From a virus, in IMG/VR virus record IMGVR_UViG_3300013383_000248: DNA of 13,237 nt. The stretch is one strand, 5' to 3'. Below the pieces are notes generated by a model that did no database searches, had not been told where the DNA came from, and worked only from the letters and a program-made list of their open reading frames with translations. A program made the position numbers and the translations under genes. Numbering within the stretch: the first letter of the stretch is position 1; each line of letters begins with the position of its first letter. Positions 1-13,140 of this stretch are shown here, piece by piece.

Positions 1-1892
1 GCATAGAAGAATGTAGTAGTCTTAATAGGTTCATCAAGTGATGGAGACCAAGAGGCAAACTCATAGTAATCAGAAGGTTCGCCGCCGACTTTCTTTTTAA
101 TATCTTCTTCATTGCCATTATAACTAGCATAATTACCGTAATAAACTCTAGTTTCATAAAGTAATTCACTATCATTGTAAAAATATACAGGATAACTTCT
201 CAGCTCTTCGGAGAATTCAGGCTCAACTGTTTTAGGAGCTGTAATTTTATCAAAGGTATCTTTCCAATCAGCATAAGTATAATCATACTATGCATCAGAT
301 GTCTTAGTAGGAATCTTGATAGTTTTATTAGCAACCGGATCAACGGCTGCGCCACCTTTGATAATCCACTATGTATTAACTACTTTATTATCGCCATCTA
401 CAAATTGAACTCTATAATATGTATCATAAAGGGCAACCATTGTAAGTGGTCCTTGAATATTGCTCTATAGATTACTTAATTCACGATAGATGTAATGAGT
501 ATCCTCAGTGCCTTCGTGAGTAGGTGTTTCAATTAATCCTGTTGCTATTGGATCTATAGCATTATCTCCTTGAGAAATTGCATATTTATAAAGTAAATCA
601 TTATTCCAGTTTACATAACGTAAGAAGAAGCGTGTTTTACCATTAACAATAACAATTAATTCCTTAAATGTTTCATTAAGTTCTTCAAGGAAATCATCAC
701 TAATTTCATTAATTTCAATATAACCAGTGACAACCGCGGTTTCAGTATTATTACCATTGGCATCTATACCGCCGCAAGATTTTAGTTTATTAAAAATAAT
801 CTTTAAAATATCTTCATTGGTGACAGACCAAGTAAGATTAACTAAACGCACACGATCAAGTTTAGGACTATTTAATAGAATATTTTCAATGGGAATGTTA
901 GGAGTATCATCAATCCATAAGGTATTGAGACTATCATAACTTTCCATAGAGAAATTCTAAATACCATGCTAATTACGAATTGTTAAGTTCGTAAATGTCC
1001 CAGGTAATTCTAGATTGGTTAAATGTCCGCCCATTGGGAATTGTAAACTCGTTAAAGAAGAACCTTTTGCTTTTACAGTTTCAAGGTTTACACAATTACT
1101 TAAATCAATTGCTTTAACTAGATTTATACAATTTTCAACATTTAAATAATCTAATAATCTATTATTACCAAGTTCTACACTTGTTAATTTATGATTAGTA
1201 TATCCATCTGCACTACTGCCAAGAATAACTTCTCTTAATTTAGTAGCCGAACTAAATTTAACAGTATCAGGTTTGAAATTACTTAAATCACCGAAGCTAG
1301 AAATTCTATCAGAAGAGCGAATAAAGATTTCAGTGTCAGATGCCGTATCAATTGGGCATTTTAATAAGTTAGGTGTATTGCGTTTACTACGCTGAGTGAC
1401 TGGATAAGAATCAGTAAAATCAACGCGGGGCCATAGATGTTGATAAGGAGTTACTGTGATATCTTCTGGAGAATATGCACGGAAACTTGCTGTCATCTTT
1501 TGGGCGTCGCCAGTGCGATACTTAGAATCGCGGTATTTAAATGTATTATATAACCACCATTCACGCTAAGTACGCTTATTACCTTGGCACATATCAAAGT
1601 ATTCTTCGCCATCAGTTAAATATACATCTAAGTATTTTAATTTAGCATCTTCATTCCAAAGAGCTTCAGGCCAGCATTTACTTTGATGTTCATTCATTTT
1701 TGTGTTAATAGCTTCATAAGAGAACTTACCTGCTATACGAAGTTTATCATACATAGCATAAATTTCAGATTTAAAAGCATCACGAATATTTAACCATAAT
1801 GTGCTTTGCTAGCCATTAAATACATCTTCATTATTTACTTTATCAGTATCTTCAAGGTCATAGTCGAAGACAAGAGCGCCTTCATTATTAAT
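1..1892 (-). CDS. Giant protein G, exon 2, partial: it continues beyond the window start. It holds the C-terminal part of the CotH-like domain, then a leucine-rich-repeat region, then further domains.
   Basis: The frame is the same as exon 1. It is open from 1892 down to position 1 through TAG codons at 1809, 1566, 969, 957, 465, 369 and 288. It joins track ORFs 1566..1754, 969..1496 and 465..947. There is no RBS or start near 1892. An LRR-like segment reads LTSVELGNNRLLDYLNVENCINLVKAIDLSNCVNLETVKAKGSSLTSLQF. Confidence 0.6.
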
Positions 1893-2939
1893 CGTTTAAT
1901 CCACTATTTCTAATGGAACAGACTATATCTTAACGGATTTTTTTAAATCCGCAAAACCCATTTCAAGCTATGTATCAATAATAGCTTTACTCTCCCGATC
2001 CGGAGATAGTCGTTACAGGTTTATAATTTAAATTATTTCAAATTTAGGAATTGCTTCAAATTTCCAACCATATAAGAAAGATCGTTTAGTAGGTATCCAA
2101 GTATCTCCAGCCTAATGTAAATTACTTCTTAAACATATATCTTTATTAAAATATAAATTAGGTTCTTTAGATGAAATAAATATCATTTCTTCGTTATTTG
2201 GAGATATTGCTTTTACAAAATAATGTGCTGTTTTTGCTTTATTTTTTCTAGCATTAGGACCATTATAATAGTTTTTCATAAAATCACCATGTCGTTTAGC
2301 TTGTTCTTGGCCTATAGGAGTTTTATAAAAATTATTCATCCATTCAGTATGCTATTCTATATGTGATTTATCAGCCCAATATTCTGTCATGCTCTAACTT
2401 AATTTTTGACGTCTTTCACCACTTCGTTCAGGATTGTTCCAATAAGCTTTAGATTGTTCTTGATGGCTATCTCCACCTGATGTTAGATTATATCCTTTGT
2501 CTAAATTATTAGAATCATAGAATTTTATATAATAACATTCTCGCTCATTTAATTTATTCTATAATTCTTGTTTATCATTAGTTTTTATTGTCTCTATGAT
2601 TTCCCAAATAAAATTATCTTTAGGATACTTTTCTAAAGTTTTATGAAAAACTGAATTGCCATAATGACGTTTTGTTGCAGTATAATGGCTAGAACGTCTA
2701 CGGTTTAAAGTATTAATAGTCTAACCTATATAAATTTTATTATTTTGTTTATTAGTTACTTTATATATTAATCCTATCATTTAACTTCCTCCTTTCTTAA
2801 AATTTTTTTTGTTGAAATAATTTAAATTAATTTCCCACGGTATTGCCTTCATCTTTACATGGTCAGGTTTCACCGTTAGCATATATTAAATATATACCCC
2901 GTTGATGAGACGGAAAAGGTTTAACAGGCATTATTACAT
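1893..2939 (-). mobile_element. Group I (IA-like) self-splicing intron, about 1047 nt, carrying a GIY-YIG homing endonuclease ORF in a peripheral loop
   Basis: The last exon bases GGU plus the first intron bases AU pair with an IGS-like AUGCC, giving a U-G wobble at the proposed 5' splice site after 2940. A P2-like hairpin CCGU...ACGG lies at about 2895-2912. P7 5' strand GACTAT at about 2003-2008 pairs with ATAGTC inside the conserved S-element AAGATATAGTC at about 1921-1931. A P9 hairpin CCATTA-GAAA-TAGTGG (GNRA tetraloop) at about 1901-1916 is followed by ACG, with candidate omega-G at 1893. There are further helices CTCCG-GAT-CGGAG and AGCTAT...ATAGCT. The flanking exons are in the same frame and together reconstitute one CotH-like domain. 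The intron length of 1047 nt, a multiple of 3, fits the frame continuity. Exact splice junctions are uncertain by a few nt. Confidence 0.6.
2028..2780 (-). CDS. GIY-YIG family homing endonuclease (I-TevI-like), 250 aa, encoded inside the intron
   Basis: ATG at 2778-2780 with SD AAGAAAGGAGGAAG. Translation reads MIGLIYKVTNKQNNKIYIG-Q-TINTLNRRRSSH...ELQNKLNERECYYIKFYDSNNLDKGYNLTSGGD. It matches the GIY-(10/11)-YIGQT, Arg/His and Glu/Asn GIY-YIG motifs. Five in-frame TAG codons, at 2721, 2559, 2394, 2352 and 2112. TAA at 2028-2030. It contains track ORF 2112..2339. Confidence 0.75.
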
Positions 2940-5900
2940 ACCATTAGCGGTATCAAAGTCATAAGGAAGTAAAAACCAATGAGTGCCGTCAAAGGTAGTG
3001 AAGAACATATTCTTTGCACGGCTATCAATCATTAAGAATACTTCAGTAAAGATATAATAGAAAATAAAATCATCTTTAATAAGATAATCATCAATTTCAT
3101 ATTTAAATTTATCAAGACGGTATTCTTCTGTATCATTATTATAAGTAGTTCCGCCATAAGTGACAGGAGCACTTAAGGCTTCACCGGTAGCCTAACGTCT
3201 ATCAGTAGAAACAATCCAATCAGCCACACGCTTAAATTGTGTATAATCACTATAAGGTTCATCTAAATCAGGATAACGGGCCTCGAAGTCAGCCATCCAA
3301 GCTGGAGTTACTGTACCTGTTTCGGCGTCTACGTATGTTTCTTCAAATTCACTCTTTTTAAATAACGTTCTATCAGAGGTATTATTTGAGAATTCCCAAC
3401 TTTCAAGGTGAGGATATAATTCACTATCAAAACCGAAAACATTTTCATTGCTCTTATCGTTATTCATATTATACATACCTTGGAATTTTACTTCGCCGGT
3501 TTCTGTATTTTCCCAGAAAACAACAATAGGAACGCCCTTAATGCCCGTTCTTATTTTATCATTTGTCTTTTGGGGCGGAGTTTTAAAAATATCACGAACA
3601 AGAGTATCATAATAATCTACAAGAACTGTATTATTTGCGTGTTCAGAAGAAGCATAGTCAGCTTTTAAGCATAATGTCGCGGCAAGTAAATCGCCGTCTT
3701 CAATTGGGAATCCTTTTGCTGTATCGCCATTAGAATAAGTAATACCTTTCTTAAAAGATACTTTAAAATTCTTAATAGGATAAACCGCTGAAGATGTACC
3801 TTGAACATTAAATTGACATCCAGTGGCTGTGAAATTACGTTCAGGATGTAAATTATCTACGAAATAAACAGATTTATTTTTCTTTTTATCGCCCTTATAC
3901 TATGGTAATTCTTCACATTGCATTACTAAGTAAGGAATAGACTTAGGTAATGAACCAATTGTAAGATTGCCGGATATATCATAAATGTGATTGCGCTCTT
4001 CAATTTCTAATCTTTCGCCATTAGTAGAACGGTCACAGATATAGTTATTTAACTATTCAGACATTGTAAGATTACGGTTATAGAAACGCATCTTATATAA
4101 GTCAAGTCCACAAGTATCAGAACCAATAGTAATAGGCTATGGAGTTGATTGTTTAAAATTATCATTTTCAGGATACTGTTCAACCGCACAAATAATGCCA
4201 TTTACATACATATAAATGAAACGATTTAAGGTTTGCGGCTCTACAACTACTGTAATTCTAACACGTTCATCTTCTTTAAACATCATAACAATTTCTTTGG
4301 ATTGCTCTGATTTAAAAATGATAGATTGGGATTTAATCACAAAACCGCGACCTTCATTAACACAAGATACAATGACTGAATCATAATCATTTACATTATG
4401 ACTACTTAATTCAAATTCCATTGTATAACCATTGGAGCGTTTGTCAGTTGCGAATGGATAGAATGGGATTACCATCTTATCTTTTGGTAAGAATCTTAAT
4501 ACTGTTTCACCAGCATCGCTCTCTACCCAGCCATCTGCGCCAGACCATACAAAACGTTCAAAAGAAGCATCTATATCATTATAGTTCCATTGTGCAGGAT
4601 TCTTTTCAGCATTACTACGTCCATTAGCTGTAAATTCTAATGCAAGATTGTCTTTAATGACTGATAAATTAAAAGTAGATTCGTGAATAGTCATATGGAA
4701 TTCTTTAATGGCGTCAGTGCCTGAATCACTACTTGCTGTAATACGGAAAATAATTTGTCCGGCGGGATAATCTTGGATAACCCAGTTTTGAGTAGTTTGA
4801 TTTACAATAATTTCTTTTGTAAAATAAATTGAATTATCAGGATTAATAATTTCTAATTTTACATTAGTAGTCTCAAGGAATGGATTATAAACCATATAAG
4901 GAATAGTAATGATTTCGCCTTGAGTTGATTCTGTCTACTGGAATGTAGAAAGAATATGTGTATCAACCATTTCGTCAGTCACATACATCATACCAAGAGT
5001 AAGAGTATTAGATTGAATAGACATATTATTAGTTTCCATTGTGGCATAGCAAGTAAATAAGTGGGCGCCGGCTGTCTACATAGGAATCTTATAACTATAA
5101 GCCAATTTATTAGTACTAGTTATTTCTTCGTTATATAATTCATTGCCATCCATTAAATAATGTAAAGTCTTAGTGCCTGAACCAATGATAACAAATGCAA
5201 AACTCGTATCACTAGTGTAAATATCCATTGATTTAAAATTAGTAGTTAATGATAAGTTAATAACACTAATTGAATAAGTCAATGTTTTTTGTTTGCCATC
5301 AGAATTTTCAACGACTAACTAAACATCATTGTCACCAAGAACTAAGTATTTAGTAATATCAAATGTTTGTAGCTTTTGTGCAACTGCAATAGTTGTTTTC
5401 TTTACATCATTGACAATGAGAGTGCCGATGCCAGGACCATCATTAAGACCATCTTGGTCTATAGACGAATAGCGGAATTTTAATTCTATTGTATCGCCTT
5501 CAAGTGTGGCAAAGATTCGGTCAATTGCAGATTGGAGAGTAATGTTATATCCTTCTTCAATAGTGCCGCCACCCGCTTGCCCTAATTTTTCATAGGCCTT
5601 GGTCAAAGTATTATAATTATATAGAGCCTAATCCGCGATGACCTTATACAGCACATCAGCTTCGCCGGTCTCAGGCAATTCATCAAATTTATTCACTACA
5701 AGAATATTACTCTTACCCTCAACGGCCTATTGAGTTTCATTAAGAATTTCATAAGCGGCTTTAGTGTCATTCCAGTAATAAAATTTTTGATTTTCTTTTA
5801 CTTTATATAATACATCTTCAACTTTTTCAGTAGGTAAATTGGCGATGGTATCTATAACTGCTATGTTCTCTTTACCTTCTACTATTGGAGTTTCACCAGT

Positions 5901-6536
5901 ATTTTCATTAATTGCCTAATAAGTTCTGGTCTATTGATTCCAAGTGTAAAGTAAATCAGTATCAGCTACCTTATAGAGCATAATTGGATTACCTTCATCC
6001 GGTAATTCTGCTTTAGTGCTAATTAATTTAATATTATTAATTTGAGATACTGTTTCTGCTTTTATTTTTTCATAATTATTATTTTGTGAGTTCCAGCTAT
6101 AAATTAACTAATCATCTAAGGATTTGTATAATTTATTATTTTCGCCGTTAGCTGGGAAGCCATCTTTTGTGTCAGCAACAATTATATTATCAATTTGAGG
6201 TTCTGGGTCTGGAATTTCTTGCTTTTCGTTGATAGCAATAAATTTATCATTATCCCAAAAATAGATTAATGATGTTGATTTAACTTTGTAGAAGAATGAA
6301 GCATCACCCTCTGGGGGTAATTTTTCTACTGTTTCAATACTTTTATTTTGAACAACTATATCATTTTCACTAGCAATATATTTCAATTCTTTCCAATTAG
6401 TTGTTCCATCACCAATTTTTAATTTATGAGTGTCTAGCTCATAACCGGCTTCTCCTATCGCTAACGTAGGATTAGCATCTAACCAATTGGTAGAAGTATC
6501 AGAACGAAGTAAAATTGTAGCATTCAATTTCCCCAT
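2940..6536 (-). CDS. Giant tail-fibre / structural protein G, exon 1 (about 1199 codons). It contains the anchor domain, 5 tandem YKV/LYxWN repeats, a ConA-like region and a CotH-like kinase-fold domain up to the P(Y/W)DxD motif.
   Basis: ATG at 6534-6536 with a strong SD (AAGGAGGTAAA). One minus-strand frame stays open across track ORFs 6108..6536, 5319..5606, 5076..5282, 4137..4895 and 3192..3476 and all gaps between them. It is interrupted only by 12 TAG codons, at 6108, 5931, 5916, 5727, 5628, 5319, 5076, 4935, 4137, 4053, 3900 and 3192. CotH-like motifs are present: NVQGTSSAVYPIKNFKVSFKKG (compare RGNSS..YPKKSYKIKF) and KNMFFTTFDGTHWFLLPYDFDTANG (compare the PWDxDxxFG region). The frame ends at TAA at 2934, which I interpret as lying within the intron, 5 nt after the 5' splice site. 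Confidence 0.65.
5585..6360 (-). repeat. Five tandem in-frame protein repeats of about 50 aa each in gene G, of the form ...LP.EG...(V/I)LYKV.....LY.W(N/D)....Y(E).(I/L)
   Basis: Translation shows FFYKVKSTSLIYFWDNDKF, KLYKSLDDQLIYSWNSQNNNYEKI, IMLYKVADTDLLYTWNQQTRTYQAI, DVLYKVKENQKFYYWNDTKAAYEIL and DVLYKVIADQAQYNYNTLTKAYEKL at roughly 150-165 nt spacing. One copy of the module also occurs after the anchor domain in X and in Y. Confidence 0.6.
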
Positions 6537-6570
6537 TATTTTACCTCCTTATATTTTAATCTCTAAATAC

Positions 6571-6610
6571 AATAAAAAAAAGGGTTATTCAGTTAACCTG
6601 AATAACCCTT
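6571..6610 (-). terminator. Rho-independent terminator downstream of gene W
   Basis: A perfect 13-bp stem AAGGGTTATTCAG / CTGAATAACCCTT (6580-6592 and 6598-6610) with a 5-nt loop. On the minus-strand transcript it is followed by a run of 8 U residues (plus-strand A-run 6574-6581). It starts 12 nt after the W stop codon. Confidence 0.7.
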
Positions 6611-6622
6611 TGGAATTAAAGA

Positions 6623-8599
6623 TTACATTACTGTATTGGCAGAACCACAATCAAAAATAACGTAAGCAGTTTGGTCTAAATCATCAATCTTGCCGGAAGC
6701 AGCAACTTTATGAAGCATTACTTCCGCACCCTTACTGATTGCACCATTGGTCTGCTTAACCTGAGTTAAAACACCAAATTTACCGTCAGTCTGGGTTTCA
6801 GTAGCAACTGCACCTTCACTAGTTAACTTAGTAATTGCGCTCGCAGCATCATCAGCACTCTTCTAAGCAGCAGCCGCAGCAGCAAAAGCACCATAAACAG
6901 TCTTATCATCGGCAGTATCTGCATCATCGCCCAAAACAGCAGCAGCAGCACCGGCGGCATCATAGGTACCAGCTTTAATGCTACCAGAGACAGACTTTAA
7001 TGTACCATTTTCCTGAACTACGGTAAGAGCTAGTTGACCATTACCTTCAGCAGCATCTTGAGAAACAGTACTAACAAGATTTACAACTTTATCGTTAATT
7101 TTCTTATCAACTGAGCCTGCAGTCTCAACAGTACCATTTAAAGTATCAATAGCGGCTTTATTGGCGTTAACTTTTTCTTCAAGAGCAGTTACATCAGCAG
7201 AAGCACCACTCTTAATGCTAGCTAAACGCTCCGTTAAGGTTTCTTTTTCGCCTTCTTCGCCGCCCTCTTTATCTAACTTGACTTGATCGCCAGAGATAGA
7301 GATTTTGCTACGAGTGGCAGTGACCATACCATTATTCTGGACAATAGTGGTAATGGTTTCATCAGCAGTACCTGTTTGAGCAGCAGCACTTAAAGATTTC
7401 TTAACAGCATCAGCAACGCCTTCATCACCGAACTGATCGAACTTGGTGCCATCAAAGATATACTCTAAAGTGCCAACGATGACAACATCACCAGTTTTAT
7501 AATCACTTACATCAGTAGGAAGAGCTTCTAACATACCTTTATAAGTTAAGGATTTAGAGAACTTTTCAACTACAGCATCGACATCTGCTTCTGTAGCAAT
7601 TTTATTGCTTTCAGAATTATAAGCAGTCTTAAACTTTAGATCACGTTTAGTAGCAGAAACAATACCATTAGCTTCGCTGATTTCACCTACGAAAGAAATG
7701 GTTTCACTATTGTCAGCAACACCAGCTTCATAACCAGTATAGTTTAATTTCTTAATTGCATTATCACGATCAGTAGCTTCTTGGGCAGCAGCAGCAGCAG
7801 CTTCTTCAGCTTTAGTCTGTGCAGCAGCGGCAGCTTTATTTGCACCGAAAACTGTACTAGCGCCAGCGGCATCAGTATCTTTACCAAGAACAGCAGCAGC
7901 AGCACCGGCGGCATCATAAGTGCCTTCTTTAATAGTAGCAGTGACAGATTTTAACGTACCATTTTCCTGAACGATGGTGACATCAAGGCCATCAGCATTG
8001 ACAGCATTTTCATCAGTGCGGTTAGAAATAGTAGCATTTAACTTTTTAATAGCCGCATCAATTTGACTAGCAATACTACCAGCACCGCCAGTTAATCCTT
8101 CAATTTCAGTCTCTAATGTAGCAATACGGCCAAAAGCATCAGTAACATCGATTAAAGAATCGGTAACATTCTGCCAATCTCCATCTAATTCTTTAGATTG
8201 AAGTTGATATTTACCAGGAATAACAGCATTTTCATCATCTTTAGCTTGAACGATTTTATATTGAGTATTGGTATCGTAGTCAGAATATTTTTCAATAGCT
8301 TCTTGTAAACCAGTGATTTCAGAAGCAGCATAAGAAGGCTTGTTAGCAGCTTTAGCCCAGCCATATATATCAGCAGCTAATCCACTTACAAAAGGAAGAA
8401 AACTATATTTACTAGCACCATCGCCAATTTTAAGGACTACATTAGGTAAATTCTGTAATTTACTAGTAGTGTTACCCTCTGGAATAGTAGCAATTGCCAT
8501 TTCGCCTTTCTTTAATACAGGATCAGCAGCAAGCCAATTATCATAACTATCATATTTTAATTGAATACGAGTTTGAAATACTTTATTAGTATCAGGCAT
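6623..8599 (-). CDS. Tail-fibre protein W, 658 aa. Anchor-like N-terminus (...VLKIGDGASKYSFLPF), poly-Ala-rich central region with two long internal direct repeats.
   Basis: ATG at 8597-8599 with SD AAAGGAGATAATAAATT. Track ORF 6863..8599 continues in frame through TAG at 6863-6865 for 80 more codons (KSADDAASAITKLTSEGAVATETQ...FDCGSANTVM). TAA at 6623-6625. An intrinsic terminator follows immediately. Confidence 0.8.
6866..7020 (-). repeat. Intragenic direct repeat in gene W, copy 2 (encodes LTVVQENGTLKSVSGSIKAGTYDAAGAAAAVLG...)
   Basis: About 85% nt identity with 7836..7990 over roughly 100-150 nt. The shared core is cagcagcagcagcaccggcggcatcata...ctttaatg/acgtaccattttcctgaac. Confidence 0.6.
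7836..7990 (-). repeat. Intragenic direct repeat in gene W, copy 1 (encodes VTIVQENGTLKSVTATIKEGTYDAAGAAAAVLG...)
   Basis: Paired with 6866..7020. Both copies are followed by Ala-rich tracts. Confidence 0.6.
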
Positions 8600-8627
8600 A
8601 ATTTATTATCTCCTTTTCAATCAATTA

Positions 8628-10304
8628 TTAATATGTAAAAGCTGCGGCGCCACCACAATTAAGTAGGACATCCTCAGTCTATACAAGTTTATTAACATTT
8701 AAGCTCTTAACCTCAAGAGCATTATTGGTATCAAGACCAATTTCAGCAGAGGTTTTAACAATACCAGCAACTTCACCAGTAGCAAATGGTAATTCAACTA
8801 CTTTATTAGTAATTGCTAAGTTTTCAGTCTAACCGGCTAACTTAATAGCTTCAATTATATTGACTTGAGCACCTTCGGCAATACCATCTAATTTGGTTTC
8901 GTCAGCAGCACTTAATAAGCCAGGAGCTGTATCACGCTTACCAGTAATCCAATCAGCAAGGCCAGTTACTTTTTCAGCAGCAACATTAGCTGAAATTTCT
9001 ACTGAGCCGTCCTCATTGATAACTAAGTTATCTAATTTAGCCTTATTGGTTGGGCTTAAGAGCGTCCAAGCTACTTGCTCGCCATTGACTTCGCTGGTAA
9101 CTTTATCAACTTTACCATCAACTTTAGTAGTTAATGCAGCAATATCATTAGTATTTTTAGTAACTTTACCAGTTAATTCAGTAACTGTAGAAGCATCAGC
9201 TTTTCCAGCAACAGTTTGAGTAAGAGTAGCTAAATCTGCTGTATGACCTTCAACAGTTGTAGTAAGAGCTGTTAAATCAGCTTGATTGGCTTTACCATTG
9301 ACAGCTTCAGTAAGAGCTGTAATATCTCCAGTATTTTTATCAACCTTGCCAGAGAGAGTTTCAACAACAGTAGCATCAGCTTTCTTACCAATTGCTGTAG
9401 TATTAGCAGCAATCTTAGTAGCAAGATCATCAGTTACTGTAGTTTTAGCATAACTCTCAAGAGTAGTATTAACATCAGCAGTTTTAGCATAATCAGTTAA
9501 ATCAACAGATGTATCACCTATTAATTCAATAGTATAGCTATCTTCTGCACCAAAGCGCATATACTCTTTATAGTTGTCTTTACCATCTTTAGAAGAAACC
9601 TTCTGCATATAAATAACATTATCAGATGCTGTAGATGGGTCAGCGATAAATGCAGCAAGTTCTTGCTCAGTGACAATCTGACGAGTTAAATGGCTAGCTC
9701 CGGCGACTGCGGCGTCAATAGCTAAATCAGCCTCATCCTTAGTATAAACATCTGCGGAATTTGCCTTTTTAGCAACTTCATCTGTTACAGTAGTAATTTT
9801 ACCATCAATATCATCTTTGGTATATACATCTTCGCTGTTGGCTTTTTTAGCAACTTCAGTTTGAAGATTTCCAACATTGGCTTCAAGAGTGGCAACCTTA
9901 GTGCTAAGCCCTTCAACAGTAGTAGTGTCAGGCTTTACCCAAGATAGCTTACCATCAGTGCCAACCGTTAATTGCGCACCAGCAGCTGCATCAGCAAATC
10001 CATAAAGACTTAATTTGCCATCAGCATCTTTAGTGAAAACATTTTCATTAATGACAATTTCTTCGCCAACCCCAGAAAGAGTTTTATCTGGCTGAATCTG
10101 ATAAATTTTTGCCTTACCATTTTCAACTACGACTACTGGATTACCATAGTAATATGCCGTATTAGTACTACCAGCAGGTTCGGCAGTAGCAGCAGCAGCA
10201 ACTGCGGCATCGTAGCTTTCAAAATAACTCTTAGGGTCAAGAGGGAACGCCGTTTGTCTATTAAGGCCAACAGCAAAATCAAGAACACCAAAATTCATAG
10301 ACAT
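8628..10304 (-). CDS. Fibre protein Z, 558 aa, with periodic Thr/Leu/Ala/Lys repeats typical of phage fibre shafts. Its N-terminus differs from the A/X/Y/W/G family.
   Basis: ATG at 10302-10304 with SD AGGAGGGGAAATAATT. Track ORF 8829..10304 continues through TAG codons at 8829 and 8679 to TAA at 8628-8630. The C-terminus reads ...NCGGAAAFTY. Confidence 0.75.
9075..9410 (-). repeat. Periodic fibre-shaft repeats in gene Z, about 11-residue units rich in T/L/A/K/V (...ITALTEAVNGKANQADLTALTTTVEGHTADLATLTQTVAGKADASTVTELTGKVTKNTNDIAALTTKVDGKVDK...)
   Basis: Seen in translation. It appears at nucleotide level as recurring ttaccag / ttagc(a/t)gcaat motifs. A second short pair EVAKKANS-DVYTKD lies at about 9763-9783 and 9841-9861. 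Confidence 0.5.
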
Positions 10305-10322
10305 AATTATTTCCCCTCCTTA

Positions 10323-11567
10323 TTAAATTTTTACAATATAACTATTTGCAGCTTCTATAGGAGCAGCAAATTCAGTTGTAAAGACTTTATAACTAATGCC
10401 AGCATCATTTTCAGCGCCAGCTACAGTAATAGTTTCTTTCCTAAATGCAGAAACAATTTCAGCATTTAAGCCATTGACATCTTTTACGGAAGTAATATCA
10501 CGTAAAGTAGCAGGATAAGCAAATACTACTCTGATTGCACCGACAGGAAGAGCAATAGTAACAGAATCGCCAGCTTTTAATGCCTTACCTGTTTTATTAA
10601 GAGCACGAATTGTAGGACTATCAAGACTATCTTTATTAGCAGTAGTGCCATAGAAAGTATTACGATAGCAGCTAATTGTGCCACTTGTCTTACTTACCTT
10701 ACCAGCCTTAATTTGACCGGCGGCATAAGCATTACCTTTATTAGTGACAGGAACTGCTGCGTCGTCATAACTGGCTTCAGCATTAATTGTATAACTATCG
10801 CTATCAGCAAGGACAATAGCTGTAAAGGTATCCTTAGCAGTTGTTTTATTCTGAACTGAAGTATTACCTTTTCTTAAATTTACATTCCAACTCTTGGCGG
10901 TTAAACCAGTAGCAGGGCCATAAGAATAAGAACCAGCACTCATTTTTGCATCATAACTTGGAGTGACAGATGTACCAACTTCAAAACTACCTGTAGTAAC
11001 TTGAGTAAAAGAAACTGCGGGTTGAGTAACAGTAGGATTTTGTTCCTTAACAAAAATCTATTCCCAAGTATCAGTTAAATTCTTGCCAGTAGAAGGAATA
11101 TGAGCAGAGCCATTTTCAAGGGTAATATAACCAATTTCCTTAGTAGTGAATAAGTCCTTATCAAAGTAAACATTATTCGCATTGTAATTGCCATTCATAG
11201 CTTGCCATTTGGAATCATTGTAAACATATGCGGTATAGGTTATTGCTTCACCGATTGCGGATTTAACAATAGCCATATCGCCTTCAAATAGAGCATTTTC
11301 ACCGACTACACGAGTGATCGCCGCGATATCATCTTCACCTTCAGCTAAGTCTGCTTGATAGACTTGAGCTTGATGAACATCAGATTCGCCGCCAAAATAA
11401 TCAAGTTGTGCCCAAGTTTTTTGGCCGTCGCCTAATTTCATTTTGGTTTCACCGGCGTCAGTAAATTCGACACCCATTTCGCCTTTCATAAGGACTACAT
11501 CAGAATTAGCTTCCCAATTAGCTGTTGAGTCATTACGTAAAGCAATACGAGTTTTAATCTAAGCCAT
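10323..11567 (-). CDS. Tail-fibre paralog Y, 414 aa. Anchor domain plus a distinct C-terminal, putatively receptor-binding, domain.
   Basis: ATG at 11565-11567 with SD GGAGGTAACGCAT. It overlaps the end of gene X by 14 nt in a different frame. N-terminus reads MA-Q-IKTRIALRNDSTANWEANSDVVLMKGEMGVEFTDAGETKMKLGDGQKTWAQLDY. In-frame TAG codons at 11559 and 11058 join track ORFs 11058..11489 and 10323..10943. TAA at 10323-10325. Confidence 0.7.
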
Positions 11568-11928
11568 ATGCGTTACCTCCATTTATAATATCTATATCTT
11601 CAATAGGAATACCTCCGCCACCGCTACCAGCCATAAGAGACTCATAGCCATTTGTTTCAGTATTCCATTGGTATAGTTTCGCAGTAGAAGAAACTTTATA
11701 AATAACATTTGCCTTACCTATACTTGGTAATTCAGCAAATACTCTAGCATTAACAACATTCTCGTTGTTCTAGTCTTGGTACGGTAAATCATTCCAAGCG
11801 GTTTTACCATCGCCAATTTTTAAACGCAAGGTATCAATTTCAAAACCAGGTTCACCATCTAAAAGTAGGAGGTTTTTGGTTCGCCAAGTTGTTGATTTAC
11901 CACGTTTAAATTTAATTATATCAGCCAT
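11554..11928 (-). CDS. Short tail-fibre paralog X, 124 aa. It consists of the anchor domain and one YKV/LYQWN repeat, then a GSGGGG tail.
   Basis: ATG at 11926-11928 with SD AAGGAGGAAAAATAAT embedded in the 3' end of gene A. Protein begins MADIIKFKRGKSTTWRTKNLLLLDGEPGFEIDTLRLKIGDGKTAWNDLPYQD. One in-frame TAG at 11770-11772. TAA at 11554-11556. It is absent from the ORF track because the TAG splits it into pieces under 60 aa. Confidence 0.6.
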
Positions 11929-11929
11929 A

Positions 11930-13009
11930 TTATTTTTCCTCCTTCTTTACTACATAGAAGCCATTTTCTAAGACCTATGTGTATCCAGAAGCAAGATAAG
12001 CCGGATTTAACATACGATTAAAGCGTCCGCCGCTAATTTCAATATGCGGTTCACCTTCAATCTTAAAATTACTATCCTATTGTGCGGTAATAAATGTGCC
12101 GCCACTAATATAAGTATTTTGGACATTTAAATCTTCATTTAGTTTACGAATATATAAATTATATTCGCCTTGATTTTGTTTACTATTTTCAAAATAACCA
12201 TCAGTAATAGTCATTGATTTACCAGTGGCAAGAATAATATTGTAGAATGTGCCGCCATTAATATTTAAAACAGCATTGTCATCATTCTTTACGGCATATA
12301 AACCACCTGCAAATGTACCATCATTAATAGTTAATTCAGGCGATTCGGCATTTTGACCTTGGACATAACCATTTGTAGCATCACCGGCTTTATAATTATA
12401 ATAACCATTTTCAATCATGCTAGAAAATTCGCCGCCACTCATAAATATACCGCCATTAATTGTCATAGTGCCATGATTAACTATAGTGTAAAATCCATTA
12501 CCAGATACATCTATTGTGCGCTACAACTTACCATTATTAATAATCGTATTACCATTATTAAAAACTGCAGGCTTACCATTTTTATTACATTCAATAGTAC
12601 CTTGACCTTTAATAGTTAAATCGCCGCCTACTTTGATGTCTATTGGAGTTGTTTCATTATTGATAATATTATTACCATTTAATTCAACAGTTAATTTTTT
12701 ATCAATAGAAACACTATTATCAAAGTCTTTATTAAGACGAATGGTGCTTCCTGCTGGAGCCTTCATAAATGCTACGTCAATAGATTGATAAGGCACACCA
12801 TCTACGACCGCGGGATTGCTAGTGTAGTCTTGGACGTTAACGACTTTAGTGCCACCGATATAAGGTAGTTCGTTCCAAGCTGTTGAACCATCACCAACTT
12901 TAATCTAATGAGTATTAAGTTCTACGCCAATTTCACCAGCTGCAAGAATAATATTTTTTTTAGACCAACTAGATGATTTGCCGCGTCTTAATTGAATAGT
13001 TTCAGCCAT
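11930..13009 (-). CDS. Tail fibre / tailspike paralog A, 359 aa. It has the HylP-like N-terminal anchor domain followed by a beta-helix-like C-terminal region with repeated NGGTF / INNG motifs.
   Basis: ATG at 13007-13009 with SD GAAAGGAGAACACAAG upstream. N-terminus reads MAETIQLRRGKSSSWSKKNIILAAGEIGVELNTH-Q-IKVGDGSTAWNELPY. The same frame stays open through TAG codons at 12905, 12521, 12077 and 11975, joining track ORFs 12521..12796 and 12077..12466. It ends with TAA at 11930-11932. Confidence 0.75.
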
Positions 13010-13026: not shown

Positions 13027-13140
13027 TTAATCATCATCTATAGAGCCGCCGTCCCAGCCGCCAGTTGATTTAGAAGTATCTTCTTTATCAATATCGCCGC
13101 CATCTTTGCCGCCCTTATATGAAAGAATAAACATCTTCAT
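13027..13140 (-). CDS. Small Gly/Asp-rich hypothetical protein, 37 aa (MKMFILSYKGGKDGGDIDKEDTSKSTGGWDGGSIDDD)
   Basis: ATG at 13138-13140 is preceded by the SD sequence AAAGGAGAAGG at 7 nt spacing. TAA at 13027-13029. It sits directly upstream of tail-fibre gene A. It falls below the ORF-track length cutoff, so it is my own call. Confidence 0.4.
   Translation of the reverse strand: MKMFILSYKGGKDGGDIDKEDTSKSTGGWDGGSIDDD

Follow-up and report, generated by a model that had tools for sequence, protein, structure and literature searches.

Reassignment of the amber codon TAG from stop to glutamine (Gln) has been described in several groups of phages. Proteomic proof is confined to crAss-like gut phages (PMC9523058), and TAG-to-Gln recoding has also been reported for the Lak megaphages (PMC6784885) and for Phassvirus phAss-1 (PMC10607447). 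A survey by Borges et al. (bioRxiv 10.1101/2021.08.26.457843), which includes the "gemstone" clades, found TAG recoding in eight clades. According to this literature, the usual decoder is a Gln-charged phage tRNA with the anticodon CUA, tRNA(CUA), sometimes together with a phage release factor 2 (RF2), and recoding is concentrated in late and lysis genes, a possible timing device. Here we analyzed a 13,237-nt stretch of viral DNA (IMG/VR record IMGVR_UViG_3300013383_000248; this whole stretch is hereafter called the window), for which an original prediction made from the letters of the DNA had proposed such recoding. From the distribution of the stop codons and the codons of homologues, we consider it very probable that the window represents the tail-fibre module of a large low-GC tailed phage of the human gut in which UAG is an ordinary Gln codon (genetic code 15). 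UAA, plus UGA in relatives of the phage, still terminates translation.

When TAA and TGA were taken as the sole stop codons, the minus strand of the window resolved into eight long open reading frame (ORF) segments containing 4, 1, 2, 2, 1, 12, 5 and 7 in-frame TAG codons, exactly the 34 counted in the original prediction. These codons belong to seven genes instead of the eight proposed, since the ORFs at 2940-6536 and 3-1892 appear to be exons of one gene (described below). The coding frame, with 4,198 codons, has no TGA (121 expected if the frame were irrelevant) and six TAA, all terminal (158 expected), along with the 34 TAG; the other two frames of the same DNA contain 363 TGA, 468 TAA and 165 TAG. 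All seven coding sequences that end within the window terminate in TAA, as does a 37-aa ORF at 13027-13140, and every complete gene starts with ATG and has an AGGAGG-like Shine-Dalgarno (SD) site 5-10 nt ahead of it. Thus, the earlier statements that no TGA occurs in frame, that all genes end in TAA and that the gene starts have proper SD sites were all correct.

The gain in reading-frame length was specific to TAG. Minus-strand stop-to-stop ORFs of at least 100 aa amounted to 2,868 aa under the standard code (code 11), 4,222 aa when TAG was read as sense and 2,994 aa when TGA was read as sense. A dozen such ORFs were found under code 11, and the longest ORF reached 1,204 aa with TAG as sense. 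Coverage by stop-to-stop ORFs of at least 150 aa rose from 0.53 under code 11 to 0.93 when TAG was sense, whereas TGA as sense left it at 0.53, i.e. no gain. The same TAG-specific jump in coverage was seen in related contigs from other samples (L006, L007, L008, L010, L011, L013, L016, L017 and L024). Indeed, the database gene caller obtained these proteins only via TAG readthrough, and some two dozen fragments or pseudogenes would be annotated in the window under code 11, in line with the fragmentation that had been foreseen. Homologue alignments passed through every TAG position and no gene ended at one, which agrees with the claim that the proteins continue coherently across the TAG codons.

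In the protein database used, TAG of such contigs is already rendered as Q, which makes the Q residues of its proteins circular evidence; the comparison was therefore made at the DNA level. In L007, a relative of about 88% nucleotide identity, the codons aligned to the TAG codons of the window were TAG (20) and CAA (7) and nothing else. In L008 they were TAG (11), CAA (12), CAG (1) and other codons (5), and in L009, where code 11 suffices to obtain the database protein from the gene, CAG accounted for 7 and CAA for 2 of the 14 aligned. For a pooled test, we used 71 non-identical standard-code relatives without in-frame TAG, all checked at the DNA level. Gln was present in 349 of 896 cells (39%) at the TAG columns of the window and in 887 of 2314 cells (38%) at its CAA/CAG columns, whereas only 0.4-3.7% of the cells held Gln where the window has E, K, L, S, Y or W (background 3.2%). 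At TAG columns 487, 879, 1227, 1308 and 1507, Gln was found in 50-67 of the 66-71 aligned relatives. Where the homologues carry TAG, the window most often has Q. TAG columns and true Gln columns thus have the same Gln occupancy, an internal control for amino-acid calling, and TAG behaves exactly like a Gln codon. Among the Gln codons of the window, CAA (91) is followed by TAG (34, or 24%) and CAG (18), and TAG has largely replaced CAG.

The two motifs that had been offered as examples fared differently. In the GIY-YIG endonuclease of the window, the motif YIG-TAG-T has Q at the TAG position in Bacillus phage Izhevsk and Listeria phage VAfA18, and another TAG of the endonuclease aligns with a Gln codon of the L017 copy. 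Q, which had been named as the family consensus, is thus common at the YIG-x-T position but not universal, as four standard-code homologues show Q, Q, K and I. The second example, a repeat position said to align with Glu in four repeats, was not confirmed: the repeats of the window show S, D and Q, and the repeat consensus at that TAG position in homologues is Q (YKVxxxQLLYxW). The proposal as a whole, a code-15-like phage with TAG read as Gln, is supported by the homologue codons, the exchange among TAG, CAA and CAG, and the TAG-specific ORF gain.

Several observations weigh against this proposal. A minority of the TAG columns hold residues other than Gln in distant homologues (K/R at 406, V at 800, T at 1511), and the homologue counts include kin, so that the statistics are not phylogenetically independent. 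In addition, neither the window nor ~40 kb from close relatives, the entire adjacent tRNA array included, yielded a tRNA(CUA), and no release factor or Gln-charging enzyme was seen in the same sequence. The non-Gln residues at some columns are as expected for variable positions. Nevertheless, columns with K/R, V, T or E in distant homologues, a decoder that was not seen in the sequence together with its charging identity, and the label "Pyl" that ARAGORN by default gives to the CUA tRNAs of distant relatives would all be compatible with TAG encoding another amino acid, i.e. Glu, Lys, Tyr, Trp, Leu, Ser or pyrrolysine. We consider this very unlikely. The Gln occupancies of 39% at TAG and 38% at true Gln columns are matched, Gln is 10-100 times as frequent at TAG columns as at E, K, L, S, Y and W columns, and CAA and CAG are the only frequent alternatives to TAG in close relatives. 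Furthermore, the tRNA(CUA) of a distant relative, L209, has U1-A72 and G73, which are Gln-like identity features.

With UAG read as Gln, its decoding must be efficient, to judge from the genes themselves, because one gene has at least 19 TAG codons and another, g3, has TAG at codon 3. We propose that a phage-supplied Gln-charged decoder would outcompete the host release factor 1 (RF1) at UAG during infection, probably late. The genes with TAG would then be translated in full in the course of infection and truncated in the uninfected or early-infected cell. The expected decoder would be a tRNA with a CUA anticodon, possibly aided by RF1 interference or a phage RF2. We infer this step from the published recoded phages, since the decoder was not found in the sequence reached. 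The suppressor search covered the window and ~40 kb of relatives of 92-99.9% identity, about one fifth of the genome, including the whole tRNA array, which is bounded by a conserved 103-aa gene and by the tail-fibre-like gene g1. Neither ARAGORN, run in both its intron and no-intron modes, nor the Rfam tRNA model gave a credible candidate in close relatives, and the same was true of a custom scan in which a YU-CUA-RN loop had to be closed by a stem of 5 bp. In the survey of Borges et al. (bioRxiv 10.1101/2021.08.26.457843), a TAG suppressor was found for only 40% of the TAG-recoded genomes. Since about four fifths of the genome is unseen and detection in that survey was 40%, the absence of a suppressor from our sample does not count against the standard model.

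The tRNA array was compared with those of more distant relatives. In L140 and L209, which share the 103-aa gene, a tRNA(CUA) is located immediately 5' of tRNA-Met, and in L145, where the array is laid out alike, a tRNA(CUA) is just 5' of tRNA-Met. In L091 (8565-8680; 99.4% identical to the window) and in L211 (20518-20588; a 92% relative), the slot 5' of tRNA-Met is occupied by a Y-RNA-like (YrlA-type) tRNA mimic, in which a T arm, a closed acceptor hairpin and a D arm are found in permuted order. Its best YrlA score was 43.8 bits (E = 3e-7, in L091), below the Rfam cut-off of 69. A weaker Y-RNA-like match was found in L017 (3211-3276), between tRNA-Val and tRNA-Gln. The suppressor is thus not at the place predicted from synteny, which echoes the published lack of a detectable suppressor in most recoded phages.

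Several elements of the array were considered as suppressors and rejected. The Y-RNA-like element was ruled out, as it is without an anticodon loop. A non-canonical tRNA with a UUA anticodon was found in L211 (20401-20471) and in eight further metagenome assemblies (L213-L220). Its sequence shows 100% identity across all nine assemblies, which are relatives of 84-92% identity, and it is located one gene earlier than the mimic slot. This tRNA(UUA) scored 48.5 bits with the Rfam tRNA model, was missed by ARAGORN, and has the T loop UGCGAUU and the anticodon loop A-U-UUA-A-U. With its ochre-type anticodon it would read UAA and UAG. It was ruled out as the essential decoder here, being cleanly deleted in the 99.4% relatives, which retain all TAG codons. 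Apart from these, a different odd tRNA, with a 6-nt anticodon loop (GUUAAU), is present in L091 (3219-3290). A conserved hairpin in the gap between tRNA-Ala and tRNA-Asn of L213-L220 (GGGUU-UUCUAGA-AGCCU) is palindromic and has no T arm or acceptor partner, and an ARAGORN "SeC(tca)" call in L091 has ambiguous intron boundaries, its intron-less orthologue being Glu(ttc).

In the 99.4% relatives, then, the array is CUA-free, with a mimic in the CUA slot, several tRNAs interrupted by tRNA-like insertions and an odd tRNA with a 6-nt loop, and the relatives of 84-92% identity keep the tRNA(UUA). A minor possibility is that UAG is read as Gln in this lineage by other means than a canonical tRNA(CUA). 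If no CUA tRNA is encoded elsewhere in the genome of ~190 kb, an unconventional tRNA or manipulation of release factors would have to account for the decoding.

The arrays of the relatives of 92-99% identity have further peculiarities, all upstream of g1 and outside the window. Several of their phage tRNA genes (Gly, His, Gln, Glu, Ile) are interrupted between anticodon-loop positions 36 and 37 (L091 3381-3520, 5448-5583, 6339-7149 and 8293-8428; L211 16178-16326). Among the inserts are some that resemble tRNAs in their own right: they have an acceptor-like stem of 7 bp and a T arm, as well as a discriminator base and an encoded CCA. There is one mini-helix of 58 nt and one complete tRNA-like unit of 73 nt. 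The tRNA-Gln insert is 735 nt long and contains an HNH-like ORF with 8 TAG codons. In L017, a 185-kb IMG/VR relative, two copies of a promoter-like repeat (TTGATTTTTTTTAAAAAAAATGATATAATATATTTACAAAGTTAA) were found ahead of the tRNA array (2796-2930), the first of them followed by a perfect hairpin.

Use of TAG as a sense codon was also followed beyond the window. Within the 10 kb upstream of g1 in L091, there is no TAG in the peptidase M28 and NeuB-like genes, 2 in the gene of a 481-aa protein, 1 in a DNA methylase gene and 8 in a 146-aa HNH-like ORF within a tRNA intron. In L211, 11 of 30 genes contain TAG (32 TAG in 5,689 codons), and the genes end in TAA (22) or TGA (8); a second count of gene ends in relatives gave TAA (17) and TGA (1). 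Many upstream genes in the flanks of L091 and L211 are TAG-free, yet a radical-SAM gene has 9 TAG codons, and no block of early genes was identified there. Overall, TAG density is very uneven across genes, from 0 to 5.5 per 100 codons, and within the window the tail genes have 0.15-1.1 TAG per 100 codons against 2.0 for the endonuclease gene. Recoding therefore reaches beyond the tail module but unevenly, with the mobile endonucleases densest in TAG. The claim that recoding is "genome-wide" is only partly supported: related contigs have TAG in 11 of 30 further genes, and the window itself is 13 kb of tail genes. The mobile elements, i.e. the GIY-YIG intron endonuclease of the window and the HNH-like ORF in the tRNA intron of relatives, show the highest TAG density, and their expression would therefore be tied to the recoded state.

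The failure to find a phage suppressor could also mean that the host itself uses a TAG-sense code, so that the phage would simply share the code of its host and could do without dedicated machinery. A copy of the large tail-fibre gene, 88% identical, is present on a 9-kb contig, L221 (CAMELE010000067.1, from the GTDB genome collection), in a metagenome-assembled genome (MAG) labelled "uncultured Mollicutes", a group known for code changes. This binning is either a host hint or a low-GC binning artefact, and for a 9-kb low-GC contig it is weak evidence. The known recoding in Mollicutes is TGA to Trp, whereas TGA is never in frame here and is a stop in relatives, and the survey of Borges et al. 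predicts standard-code Firmicutes/Bacteroidetes hosts for TAG-recoded phages. In addition, the uneven TAG density (0-5.5 per 100 codons) fits suppression timed by the phage better than a constitutive host code. A host with a TAG-sense code thus seems very improbable. Because the standard-code homologues of the large fibre gene are found in Clostridia MAGs (Lachnospiraceae, Oscillospiraceae and Acutalibacteraceae) and the SD sites are strong, the host is probably a member of the Bacillota.

Natural low-level amber readthrough exists in bacteria and phages. Together with the lack of a dedicated suppressor in our search, this would allow TAG to be mainly a stop codon, with the full-length proteins as rare regulatory by-products. 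However, the large tail-fibre gene has 19 TAG codons, and readthrough of 50% per site would leave ~2 full-length chains in a million; conserved domains lie downstream of many TAG codons, and the third codon of g3 is TAG. Such readthrough is highly unlikely to account for the window. Finally, a decaying prophage or defective element, with amber nonsense mutations and with pseudogenes as ORF fragments, would look like a string of fragments under code 11 and would need no suppressor tRNA nearby, as found. But decay would give all three stops and frameshifts, where we see 34 TAG, no TGA, no internal TAA and no frameshift in 4,198 codons. Diverged relatives have TAG at many of the same positions (20 in L007, 11 in L008) and otherwise show exchange with Gln codons. 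Sequence of 99.4-99.9% identity was assembled independently on contigs of 98-194 kb, and one relative of the lineage was assembled at ~1,200x coverage, as fits a replicating phage. This explanation, the least probable of all, is effectively refuted by the stop-codon asymmetry.

The ORF at 2940-6536 (minus strand; 1,199 codons with 12 in-frame TAG) ends ...LLPYDFDTANG at 2940, and the ORF at 3-1892, which lacks a start codon, begins INNEGALVFDYDLED... at 1892. From comparison with homologues, we take them to be two exons of one tail-fibre gene of ~2,100 aa (g6). In close relatives the product is a single uninterrupted protein of 2,119 or 2,067 aa (P0001, P0003), and the fused exons used as a tblastn query matched the standard-code phages NatCom_3357, Hankyphage p00 and Bacillus phage G gp353 unbroken across the junction. 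DNA comparison with L007 and L008, which are intron-less and read ...GAT ACA GCx xTT GGx ATC AAT AAT GAA..., showed that a 1,047-nt insertion (1893-2939, minus strand) sits exactly between GGT and ATT; the exon junction reads ...GCTAATGGT|ATTAATAATGAAGG... (...AATGGT|ATTAAT...). The site is occupied in L016, L017 and L024 (a 60%-identical lineage) and empty in L007, L008, L010, L011 and L013, a pattern that would represent the patchy distribution of a mobile intron.

The insertion has features of a group I intron. The 5' exon ends in ...AAUGGU (U) and the insertion in ...AAACG (G), and P1 is GGU|AU paired with AUGCC a few bases inside the insert. AACGACUAUC and AAGAUAUAGUCU match the group I R and S core elements, forming P7. 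An in-frame stop is found two codons into the intron, and the endonuclease ORF, with its own SD site, is looped out of the intron fold. At least four hairpins, read by eye, show compensatory changes between the copy in the window and those in L017/L024 (two intron lineages), for example CAU/AUG to CGC/GCG, AAGCUAU/AUAGCUU to GGGGUGC/GCACUUC, and GCGGAUUU/AAAUCCGU to GUAGAUUU/AAAUCUAU. At the 3' end of the insert, 36 nt match a stretch that is unannotated in Enterococcus phages EF1 and EF5. No match at E<=1 to the Rfam group I model RF00028 was obtained in the window or in L010, and the 753-nt ORF within the intron may defeat this model. On the grounds of the allele comparison, the core motifs and the compensatory changes, and without an Rfam match, we interpret the insert as a putatively self-splicing group I intron carrying a homing endonuclease. 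A search of IMG/VR with the intron hairpin motif returned 112 stretches, mostly from unrelated phages, many of which adjoin homologues of the tRNA-intron ORF.

The endonuclease ORF (2028-2780, minus strand, 250 aa, TAA end) matches Pfam GIY-YIG (E=7e-7) and the homing endonuclease family PHROG 314 (E=6e-25), and aligns with standard-code endonucleases. Its five TAG codons, at 2721, 2559, 2394, 2352 and 2112, give the highest TAG density of the window (5 in 250 codons). With five TAG sense codons in its ORF, the endonuclease could therefore be made only where UAG is decoded.

Under code 15 the window becomes a clean module of five fibre genes, a receptor-binding protein of ~2,100 aa and an intron endonuclease. 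Coding is entirely on the minus strand, and the GC skew is negative throughout, consistent with minus-strand coding. The first gene, g1 (11930-13009, minus strand, TAA end), encodes a 359-aa tail-fibre-like protein with an Mtd_N N-terminus (Pfam Mtd_N E=5e-11; PHROGs tail-fibre families); its four in-frame TAG are seen as plus-strand CTA at 12905, 12521, 12077 and 11975, and a 99%-identical homologue (P0083) is carried by contigs of 98-152 kb. It is followed by g2 (11554-11928, minus strand, TAA end), encoding a 124-aa Mtd_N protein with one TAG (11770-11772); the aligned codon is not TAG in L007 or L008. The end of g2 is overlapped by g3 (10323-11567, minus strand), which encodes a 414-aa Mtd_N tail protein (PHROG 35541, E=7e-40), starts MA-TAG-IKT, has TAG at 11559 and 11058 and ends in TAA TAA. 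It is called as 414 aa in L007, L008 and L091. Next, g4 (8628-10304, minus strand, TAA TAA end) encodes a 558-aa fibrous protein with Ala/Thr-rich coiled repeats and TAG at 8829 and 8679, and has syntenic counterparts in L007, L008 and L091. The product of g5 (6623-8599, minus strand, TAA end) is a 658-aa fibrous protein with a weak Mtd_N match and one TAG (6863-6865).

Exon 1 of the large tail-fibre gene g6 encodes an Mtd_N N-terminus, YKV..W repeats and a CotH-like central region. Exon 2 (1-1892, minus strand; 630 codons in the window, with 7 in-frame TAG) runs off the left end of the window, and ~290 further codons follow in relatives. Mtd_N (PF18454) scored above the Pfam cut-off of 26.3 bits in g1, g2 and g6 (E 5e-11 to 2e-10), and below it in g3 (24.6 bits) and g5 (18.4 bits); PHROGs tail-fibre families match the fibre proteins of the window. 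The 37-aa ORF just 5' of g1 (MKMFILSYKGGKDGGDIDKEDTSKSTGGWDGGSIDDD; 13027-13140, minus strand) is TAG-free, with a strong SD site and a TAA end. It is conserved, being called as a 37-aa gene in L091, L092 and L008, and in relatives it has the tRNA array on one side and the tail-fibre genes on the other. Neither a tRNA nor any Rfam family was detected in the window, and no terminase, major capsid or portal gene was found in the window or in the fetched flanks.

The beginning of a 194,445-bp ENA contig (L006; ena:ERZ26858192 NODE_10_length_194445) matches the window at 99.9% identity, and contigs of 98 kb (ERZ808245 NODE_34) and 152 kb (ERZ27300191 k119_53938), L091 and L092, match it at 99.4% over 11.3 kb. 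Relatives of 84-92% identity are carried by contigs with lengths of 185-190 kb, several of which have the label human gut metagenome; contigs of the lineage include ERZ28616865 scaffold_48 (187 kb), ERZ1035037 NODE-1 (185 kb) and OJAW01000005.1 (190 kb). The genome of the lineage is thus about 185-195 kb. Among the GenBank phages (50,697 records) there was no nucleotide match and no close protein relative; the big fibre, g1 and the endonuclease had no more than distant protein matches. In IMG/VR, an exact 41-mer search and a single-protein search were without match, and a profile search found 80 loci. The window is a well-supported case of an already known phenomenon, in an undescribed lineage without a close GenBank relative. 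The results add a large human-gut phage lineage, probably infecting Bacillota, to the amber-recoded phages.

Like the code-15 gut phages, this lineage has in-frame TAG codons in conserved structural genes that align with Gln, a low GC content and a gut origin; it keeps TAA and TGA as stops, structural genes are rich in TAG while some of their neighbours are free of it, and the flanks of its relatives carry a large phage tRNA set. Its size of ~185-195 kb falls within the range of the large recoded clades of Borges et al. As in the Lak phages, some tRNAs have tRNA-like insertions, and "enigmatic" tRNA introns that may encode a tRNA have been described in Lak (PMC6784885). Unlike Lak and phAss-1, the lineage has no CUA suppressor that could be found in its fully read tRNA array, and, unlike crAss and Lak with their Bacteroidota hosts, its SD sites and Clostridia-MAG relatives point to Bacillota. 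Contigs of 185-194 kb fit neither crAss-like phages (GenBank records of ~100 kb, e.g. cr6_1 with 97,422 bp) nor Lak (~540 kb), and we assign the lineage to neither Crassvirales nor Lak.

The large tail-fibre gene has counterparts among CotH-like/DUF6273 tail proteins, namely those of Hankyphage p00, "Ca. Heliusvirales" NatCom_3357 and Bacillus phage G (gp353), which are homologous over ~1,300 residues with 26-39% identity. These proteins are uninterrupted and in the standard code, and they served as an outgroup with Gln at TAG columns. Their N-terminal region differs from the Mtd_N and repeat region of the window gene, none of the three has an intron at the site, and, phage G excepted, the genomes are 41-48 kb. 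The intron itself resembles the T4 td intron with I-TevI, SPO1-like introns and the introns of Enterococcus and Staphylococcus phages, in that a conserved codon block is interrupted and an in-frame stop follows early. It also follows the splice rule of known phage group I introns (U before the intron, G at its end), has an R/S-like P7 and a looped-out, free-standing GIY-YIG ORF with an SD site, and occurs sporadically among close relatives. It differs from them in that its host gene is a tail fibre and not a nucleotide-metabolism or polymerase gene, that it has no Rfam group I match, and that its endonuclease ORF has five TAG sense codons. Less ordinary among recoded phages, therefore, are this code-adapted intron endonuclease and the peculiar tRNA array of the flank, the latter with a published parallel only in the Lak phages.

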